The notes under the pieces were generated by a model. It was not told the origin of the DNA, searched no databases, and was given only the letters and a program-made list of their open reading frames with translations. Both the position numbers and the translations under genes were made by a program. DNA of 64,000 nucleotides from an uncultured Gemmatimonadaceae bacterium (GTDB taxonomy: Bacteria; Gemmatimonadota; Gemmatimonadetes; Gemmatimonadales; Gemmatimonadaceae): the NCBI GenBank assembly GCA_963740355.1, contig CAVUDW010000003.1:960001-1024000 (forward strand). Direction: 5' to 3'. Of the stretch, positions 61,495 to 61,660 are shown one piece after another (position 1 is the first letter of the stretch; each line of letters begins with the position of its first letter).

Positions 61495-61660
61495 GACCGC
61501 GCGCGCCCTGCCTTGCGAGATGCGGGATCGCGTGGGCGTCCCTGGTAGCTGTCCGGGCTTGTAGCGATCGGGACGACGGCGCTCTGACTCTGCGACGGGC
61601 TCACGGCGCCCGGGGCGCTCCGAACGAGCTGCCGCCGTCCCGGAGATTTAGCTTCTGTGC
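61495..61660 (-). ncRNA. Predicted bridge RNA (target-binding loop 61570-61641, donor-binding loop 61505-61558); ends approximate
   Basis: Two internal-loop hairpins whose loop segments match the element's own target and donor sequences (see findings). Confidence 0.82.

Follow-up and report, generated by a model that had tools for sequence, protein, structure and literature searches.

In the 64-kb window (the whole stretch of DNA analyzed here), an intact IS110-group insertion sequence very probably encodes a bridge RNA of about 145 to 175 nt in its left end. The IS110 bridge-RNA system was described in 2024, and bridge recombinases are under development as programmable tools for DNA insertion, inversion, and excision. 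Since computational surveys in the literature already predict such RNAs by the thousand for IS110 elements, this one contributes a further example, along with a modest set of comparative data, and no new principle. It is a candidate for testing as a cleanly defined ortholog, with seven copies, one target motif, guides assigned by homology, and a compact protein. Its identification as a genuine bridge-RNA ortholog, i.e., as a further member of the known system, is well supported by sequence comparisons, and the tables of Durrant et al. may already list the element or its clade. The first-pass annotation had assigned this left end to the IS621-type bridge-RNA architecture, which is borne out by the recombinase domains, the matches to IS621 and ISCro4, the compensated stems, and guides that covary with the flanking sequences. 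Among the publications listed for IS110 and Gemmatimonad, none appeared from its listing to concern bridge RNAs.

Seven copies of the element in a host repeat

The genome carries seven full-length copies of the element, which were 96 to 100% identical in a genome-wide sequence search; besides these, one 33-nt match at chance level was found. All seven copies occupy the same site, GCGC-CT-CTGCG, and flank alignment revealed no duplication longer than CT at any of the seven pairs of junctions. The target thus reads (TCT)GCGC-CT-CTGCG, with ACAGCTA-CT-TGTAT as the donor junction. The same donor and target had been proposed earlier from the window copy, and the ends and flanks of the seven genomic copies bear them out independently. 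The coordinates of all features are given in Table 1.

TABLE 1 Features of the insertion sequence and its predicted bridge RNA (positions in the window)
Feature	Position	Strand	Sequence or basis
IS110-group insertion sequence body	60528..61673	minus	1,146 bp; ends are where the seven genomic copies stop matching
Element left end	first base 61673	minus	starts TGTATGTCTCC; copies aligned with flanks
Element right end	last base 60528	minus	finishes CAACACAGCTA; copies aligned with flanks
Left CT core copy	61674..61675	minus	CT is the only sequence common to both junctions in 7/7 copies
Right CT core copy	60526..60527	minus	sequence and copy alignment
Left target flank	61676..61682	minus	TCTGCGC; GCGC in 7/7 copies, TCTGCGC in 6/7
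Right target flank	60521..60525	minus	CTGCG; 7/7 copies
Recombinase gene	60543..61478	minus	311 aa, DEDD RuvC-like and Tnp domains; Pfam and PDB matches
Ribosome-binding site	61483..61487	minus	GGAGG, 4 nt before ATG; read from sequence
Predicted bridge RNA core	61501..61644	minus	covariance model R1, 84.8 bits, E 9e-17; sole match in the 64-kb window
Target-binding stem-loop	61570..61641	minus	outer stem, extension, inner hairpin
Target-loop outer stem	61641-61631 with 61580-61570	minus	GGGACGGCGGC with GCCGTCGTCCC
Target-loop stem extension	61629-61626 with 61584-61581	minus	GCUC with GAGC
Target-loop inner hairpin	61612-61608 with 61600-61596	minus	CGGGC with GCCCG
Left target guide candidate	61614..61618	minus	GCGCC; equals top strand of left-target positions 4-7 plus first core base
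Right target guide	61588..61594	minus	CGCAGAG; reverse complement of core plus right target (CTCTGCG), 7/7 bases
Target-loop handshake position (candidate)	61587	minus	U; complementary to last right-end base A
Donor-binding stem-loop	61505..61558	minus	outer stem and inner hairpin
Donor-loop outer stem	61558-61555 with 61508-61505	minus	GCCC with GGGC
Donor-loop inner hairpin	61542-61539 with 61527-61524	minus	GGGA with UCCC
Left donor guide	61545..61552	minus	ACAGCUAC; equals last 7 right-end bases plus first core base
Right donor guide core (candidate)	61512..61515	minus	CAAG; complementary to CT plus TG at left-end start
Donor-loop handshake positions (candidate)	61510..61511	minus	GC; complementary to left-target bases 6-7 (GC)
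-35-like hexamer in right end	60541..60546	minus	TTGACT; overlaps stop codon
Putative weak -10-like hexamer in left end	61666..61671	minus	TATGTC (3/6); read from sequence

In the host genome, GCGCCTCTGCG occurs 32 times and TCTGCGCCTCTGCG 13 times. The chance expectation for the latter, estimated from base composition, is about 0.13, from which we conclude that the target of the element is a host repeat composed of CTCTGCG-like units. Such CTCTGCG-type repeats hold all seven element copies. The CTCTGCG-like units are often followed by ttgcagt-like units, both at 61808-61845 of the window and genome-wide in G000, and sequences with one mismatch to the target are present at 61819-61837, beside the window copy. 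A comparable preference has been reported for ISPpu10 of Pseudomonas putida (bioRxiv 10.64898/2026.03.19.712850), where the IS110 insertions described were all in copies of one conserved intergenic repeat; that study also suggests that a further structural layer takes part in recognizing the target.

The noncoding left end measures 195 nt (61673-61479), versus 15 nt past the stop codon for the right end (60542-60528). These lengths bear on whether the element is instead of the IS1111 type, with a seekRNA at its 3' (right) end rather than a bridge RNA in its left end. The two types share one protein family (the IS110 family, with a DEDD recombinase) and RNA-guided site choice. In the IS1111 group, however, the guide RNA is located in a long right end, and sub-terminal inverted repeats of 7 to 17 bp are present, as described in PMC11208160. 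Here, the predicted guide RNA is in the left end, the structured and covarying RNA maps upstream of the gene, and long sub-terminal inverted repeats were not seen by eye at the element ends. We consequently give the IS1111 reading almost no weight.

The recombinase

The protein matched PF01548 (DEDD_Tnp_IS110; E 4.1e-26, 92 bits) and PF02371 (Transposase_20; E 1.2e-15, 58 bits). Among solved structures, matches over residues 2 to 305 were obtained with the transposases of ISCro4 (9t56; E 1.3e-34) and IS621 (8wt6; E 5.8e-32). The best of these, ISCro4 (residues 3 to 305; GIDVSK, EAT, KTD.VDAR, and ESG conserved), is a distant homolog from another host lineage; the comparison covered the protein. 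The motifs GIDVSK, LEATG, KTDRVDAR, and QESGQ were identified at residues 5, 49, 90, and 228. Alignment of these motifs with IS621 residues D11/E60/D102/D105/S241 (PMC11208158) points to D7, E50, D92, D95, and S230 as the candidate catalytic set. A 400-aa frame has its start (GTG 61745) in flanking DNA, which is not the same from copy to copy, and was set aside as a GC-rich artifact.

The 311-aa frame is intact in all seven copies; together with the ends, core, and flanks set by these copies, this agrees with the earlier proposal of an intact ortholog with its own donor and target. When the window copy was compared with copy L004, 1 of 197 positions differed in the left end versus 43 of 936 in the open reading frame (ORF) (Fisher P = 0.0037). 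The ORF differences comprised 30 silent and 13 amino acid-changing positions, the latter yielding 9 amino acid differences, and the sole left-end difference, at 61534, was in the terminal loop of the donor hairpin. Better conservation of the noncoding end than of the gene fits a functional RNA.

Recent activity of the element family in this genome is evident only for the subfamily of copies L003 to L007, which are 99.2 to 99.9% identical over the element; the window copy is 96 to 97% identical to the other six. The RNA family might thus be correctly identified and the window copy nonetheless be a fossil that no longer transposes, either as a divergent member or with an RNA or promoter that is not expressed. 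Its nine amino acid differences from L004, the weak -10 box, and the lack of any match in the assembly to the circle junction (right end-CT-left end) are in line with such a state. We consider it unlikely, however, given the intact frame, the preponderance of silent changes among the ORF differences, the canonical insertion site, guide segments that are the same as in the other six copies, and the position of the single left-end change in a terminal loop.

A predicted two-loop RNA in the noncoding left end

When the minus strand was read and each motif was checked, every stem, hairpin, and guide motif of the first-pass annotation proved to lie where it had been placed. The two-loop fold that it described was evaluated using an alignment of 24 left ends (the window element and 23 homologs), trimmed to the conserved block, with a structure of four helices and 24 pairs. 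Standard pairs were formed in 95.7% of the 576 cells, compared with 38.7 to 49.1% when the partners were slid by one to three columns, and compensatory changes on both sides were detected in 19 of the 24 pairs, which strongly supports the proposed fold. These changes were distributed over the target-loop outer helix (12 of 13 pairs) and inner helix (2 of 3) and over the donor-loop outer stem (3 of 4) and inner hairpin (2 of 4). None of 500 shuffles reached any of five structure measures. The RNAalifold consensus contained the same helices and two extra pairs, which were left out of the tested structure.

The minimum-energy fold reproduced the target-loop stems and the inner donor hairpin and placed the donor outer stem in a shifted register. 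No 5' stem-loop was evident in this fold between the presumed start and the first stem. The fold energy was unexceptional for the GC-rich composition (z = -1.29 for 202 nt and -1.25 for 144 nt). A search of Rfam 15 returned no family for the region; the best matches were hairpin-like microRNA models with E values of at least 0.47, located outside the element. What decisively supports the two-loop fold and the guide assignment is comparison with relatives, not fold energy or matches within the single element.

Guide segments of the window element

Each of the two loops carries two segments that match the target or the donor (Table 1); in the donor loop, ACAGCTAC is read at 61552-61545 of the minus strand. 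These guide segments are identical across all seven copies. Chance matching was assessed with 5,000 mononucleotide shuffles of the left end, scoring the longest matching run. A 7-nt run complementary to the core plus right target was reached in 429 shuffles, the 8-nt donor run (ACAGCUAC) was reached in 48, and both runs were reached jointly in 5. By contrast, the 5-nt run GCGCC was reached in 4,428 shuffles and is within chance on its own. The longest right-donor run, on which that test was based, was not the shorter CAAG but the 6-nt UACAAG between the loops (454 shuffles). UACAAG (61566-61561) was considered as an alternative right donor guide and rejected, being within chance and not conserved in relatives. 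Within the element, only the matches of CGCAGAG and ACAGCUAC taken jointly exceed chance; GCGCC and CAAG are not significant alone.

The left target guide matched 5 contiguous bases of 8, a level reached by about 31% of non-cognate pairs. Upstream of GCGCC, the guide has GGA, which mismatches the TCT found at six of the seven sites; the seventh site (L003) has ACC. That the site of L003 also differs there suggests that these three positions are not read. Both left-hand guides, which had been described as matching their own donor and target, match the first core base C and leave the core T unmatched.

Relatives and covariation of guides with flanking sequences

Relatives were collected in a scan of one genome per species, and the best 80 of 154 related loci were kept. 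Amino acid identity to the query was 60% in a Gemmatimonadaceae metagenome-assembled genome (MAG), 44 to 52% in most Dehalococcoidia, Binataceae, "delta-proteobacterial," and other MAGs, and 35 to 40% in marine gammaproteobacteria. For seven multi-copy families (F1 to F7), the element ends were set without any RNA model. CT-TGTAT is the start of nearly all elements: CTTGTA was present upstream in 74 of 87 loci, and some of the remaining loci have a TT or AT core. The right ends of the non-gammaproteobacterial families (this element's own copies and F1 to F7) follow the pattern TTGAC, 6 nt, A.ACAG, 3 variable nt, CT.

Model R1 had exactly one match in the window (61644-61501) and exactly seven in the genome. 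In 356 kb of sequence from 87 sources, it yielded 84 matches, and in 82 of the sources it placed the RNA upstream of the recombinase. It also recovered gammaproteobacterial left ends that were absent from the seed, with scores of 50 to 68 bits. The sources without a match were L026, L033, L058, L081, and L083, at least four of which have a truncated or replaced upstream region. At L026:1-1510 (Dehalococcoidia), the recombinase gene and right end are kept and unrelated sequence stands in place of the left end; judging from this arrangement, it is a truncated or rearranged copy. Two matches in a delta-proteobacterial MAG (L071:527-671 and L071:1761-1905) share one strand at a distance of 1,234 nt, in what resembles a head-to-tail tandem, which would contain a junction of the right end with the left end in the chromosome. 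In a Dehalococcoidia MAG, back-to-back matches 60 nt apart (L015:120-258, minus strand, and L015:319-456, plus strand) are, by their orientation, two related elements inserted head to head.

The lineage had been described as poorly sampled. Among 101 sampled genomes of the host's bacterial family, 23 were matched by R1, i.e., the host (seven matches) and 22 of the 100 others, a tally that includes the unpublished genome G007; such elements are therefore not especially rare in this family. Three R1 matches in G070 coincide with loci L009 to L011 (Gemmatimonadaceae MAG), and the host family is called Gemmatimonadaceae on this basis.

Guide sets were compiled from the 84 R1 matches after removal of 1 match on the opposite strand of L015 and 14 matches without a flank (at a contig end, or with a right end not found by the pattern), leaving 69 elements in 41 sets. 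The right ends of single-copy relatives were called by sequence pattern rather than by copy comparison; that of L063 was mis-called and, by eye, fits once corrected. The right target guide, a 7-mer with the complement of the core at its end, matched five of five non-core bases in 34 of the 41 sets (mean, 4.68 versus 1.60 for non-cognate pairings), across targets as varied as GAGCC, GGACC, AACCT, GATTC, GCTTC, CCTCC, CCGGT, GCACC, CGAAC, CTGCG, TGTTA, and others. For the left target guide, scored as the best ungapped match on the 5' loop side to the left target plus the first core base, the mean over the 41 sets was 6.15 of 8 versus 4.09 for non-cognate pairings. The left donor guide was identical to the final seven bases of the right end in 36 of the 41 sets (mean, 6.76 versus 5.13) and tracked the right-end variants CTA, TTG, TCG, ATG, TCA, and TCT. 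The first-pass annotation had suggested guide/target covariation among homologous left ends as a check; in this analysis, none of 10,000 permuted pairings reached the observed mean for any of the three guides, counts that overstate independence because many guide sets are related by descent. The loop segments named in the first-pass annotation fall at these covarying positions.

CAAG was invariant in all 24 aligned left ends, as was the CTTGTA start, and covariation is therefore uninformative for the right donor guide; of CAAG it can be said only that it fits the model. Elements whose core at the right junction is TT show AA in place of AG within the right target guide, indicating that the core itself covaries with the guide. 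These elements (L067, L068, L073, L074, L079, and L084) are from marine gammaproteobacteria, and some of them have CT or AT at the left junction and TT at the right. Of 42 left target guides in the clade, 22 span both core bases and 13 span the first alone; among 44 left donor guides, CT never appears at the core positions.

The left end might alternatively be a 5' untranslated leader joined to a terminal sequence recognized by the protein, with the donor and target matches arising by coincidence in GC-rich DNA. The unremarkable fold z scores and the chance-level runs GCGCC and UACAAG speak for such a leader. Against it stand the compensatory changes in the stems, guides that change with the flanks in dozens of families, a left end more conserved than the ORF, and the rarity in shuffles of CGCAGAG together with ACAGCUAC. 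This explanation is already strongly disfavored, and we regard it as very improbable.

Handshake positions

According to Hiraizumi et al. (PMC11208158), bases beside the right-hand guides of IS621 pair with the exchanged strand. In the bridge RNAs predicted here, the base after the right target guide can pair with the final base of the right end in 40 of 44 guide sets (0.53 for non-cognate pairings), and the base after CAAG can pair with left-target base 7 in 34 of 38 sets (0.60 for non-cognate pairings). Neither observed count was reached in 10,000 permutations. The second handshake positions gave no signal, with 4,995 and 572 of 10,000 permutations reaching the observed counts.

Putative junction promoter and proposed mechanism

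IS621 is reported to rebuild a promoter at its circle junction (PMC11208158 and PMC11208160). In a circle of the present element, TTGACT and TATGTC would be spaced by 17 nt, and TTGACT may act as a promoter box by analogy with the IS621 junction promoter. All eight multi-copy families (this element's own copies and seven others) have TTGA[CT] at a fixed distance of 13 nt ahead of the core. Gammaproteobacterial relatives have a right end that is 4 nt shorter after TTGAC and a GATAA -10-like box that is 4 nt deeper in the left end; with this 4-nt shift on both sides, the 17-nt spacing is kept, as read from the sequences rather than from a statistical test. A consensus scan, which sees the linear sequence only, detected no minus-strand promoter in the left end.

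By homology with IS621, excision would join the right and left ends on a circle, setting TTGACT as a -35 box 17 nt from TATGTC as a -10 box, and the left end would be transcribed from there. The RNA would fold into two internal-loop stem-loops and would be bound by the DEDD/Tnp recombinase. Its target loop would read the genomic site GCGC-CT-CTGCG, and its donor loop would read the element's own junction, ACAGCTA-CT-TG, where ACAGCUAC would pair to the bottom strand and CAAG to the top strand. Immediately 3' of the right-hand guides, bases (U and GC, respectively) could pair with the exchanged strands in a handshake-like manner, and recombination at the CT core would leave the element inserted. 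As in IS621, the guides may be programmable.

Comparison with IS621 and division of specificity

The element resembles IS621 of Escherichia coli (PMC11208160 and PMC11208158; PDB 8wt6) in its DEDD RuvC-like plus Tnp recombinase, its long left end, short right end, and CT core, and its two internal-loop stem-loops with handshake positions beside the right-hand guides. Its putative -35 box (right end) and weak putative -10 box (left end) would be brought together on a circle, in the manner of the IS621 boxes. The strand rules given for IS621 by Durrant et al. (PMC11208160), under which each loop is complementary on its 3' side to the top strand over 4 to 7 nt, agree with those found here.

Several differences were also evident. 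At 311 aa, the protein is smaller than that of IS621, whose PDB chain has 328 residues. The right target guide is naturally 7 nt long, compared with 4 nt in IS621 (some orthologs in PMC11208160 have longer ones), and the left target guide matches 5 bases compared with 9 in IS621. Unlike those described for IS621, the left-hand guides stop short of the core T, and the 5' stem-loop that precedes the target loop in IS621 is not evident here, the two RNAs being compared by description.

The 7-nt right target guide, the left guides ending at the first core base, and the 5-nt effective left target guide raise the idea that a clade of small recombinases (about 300 to 311 aa) divides specificity differently from IS621, choosing sites mainly through the right target and the host CTCTGCG repeat. 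We put this forward tentatively, as a possibility that we doubt more than we favor. Members of the clade come from Gemmatimonadaceae, Dehalococcoidia, Binataceae, and marine gammaproteobacteria. If real, an altered split of specificity would be a natural variant of guide layout, useful for engineering shorter or asymmetric guides. The occurrence of all seven copies in a repeated CTCTGCG-type motif is a likeness to ISPpu10.

Hairpins beside and within the element

Just beyond the left end of the element, an imperfect hairpin of about 29 pairs occupies window positions 61717-61781, between a convergent gamma-glutamyltranspeptidase-like gene (58644-60509) and a minus-strand ORF of 471 aa (61867-63282). 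Its only Rfam matches were at chance level and of the microRNA type. The element insertion now parts this hairpin from the stop codon of the upstream gene. Immediately ahead of the TTGACT box, a second, GC-rich hairpin of 12 bp (60548-60575) is located within the recombinase gene at its 3' end. On the plus strand, GGTTTGTGTT follows this hairpin, which has a terminator-like score and could keep read-through from the neighboring gene out of the element.
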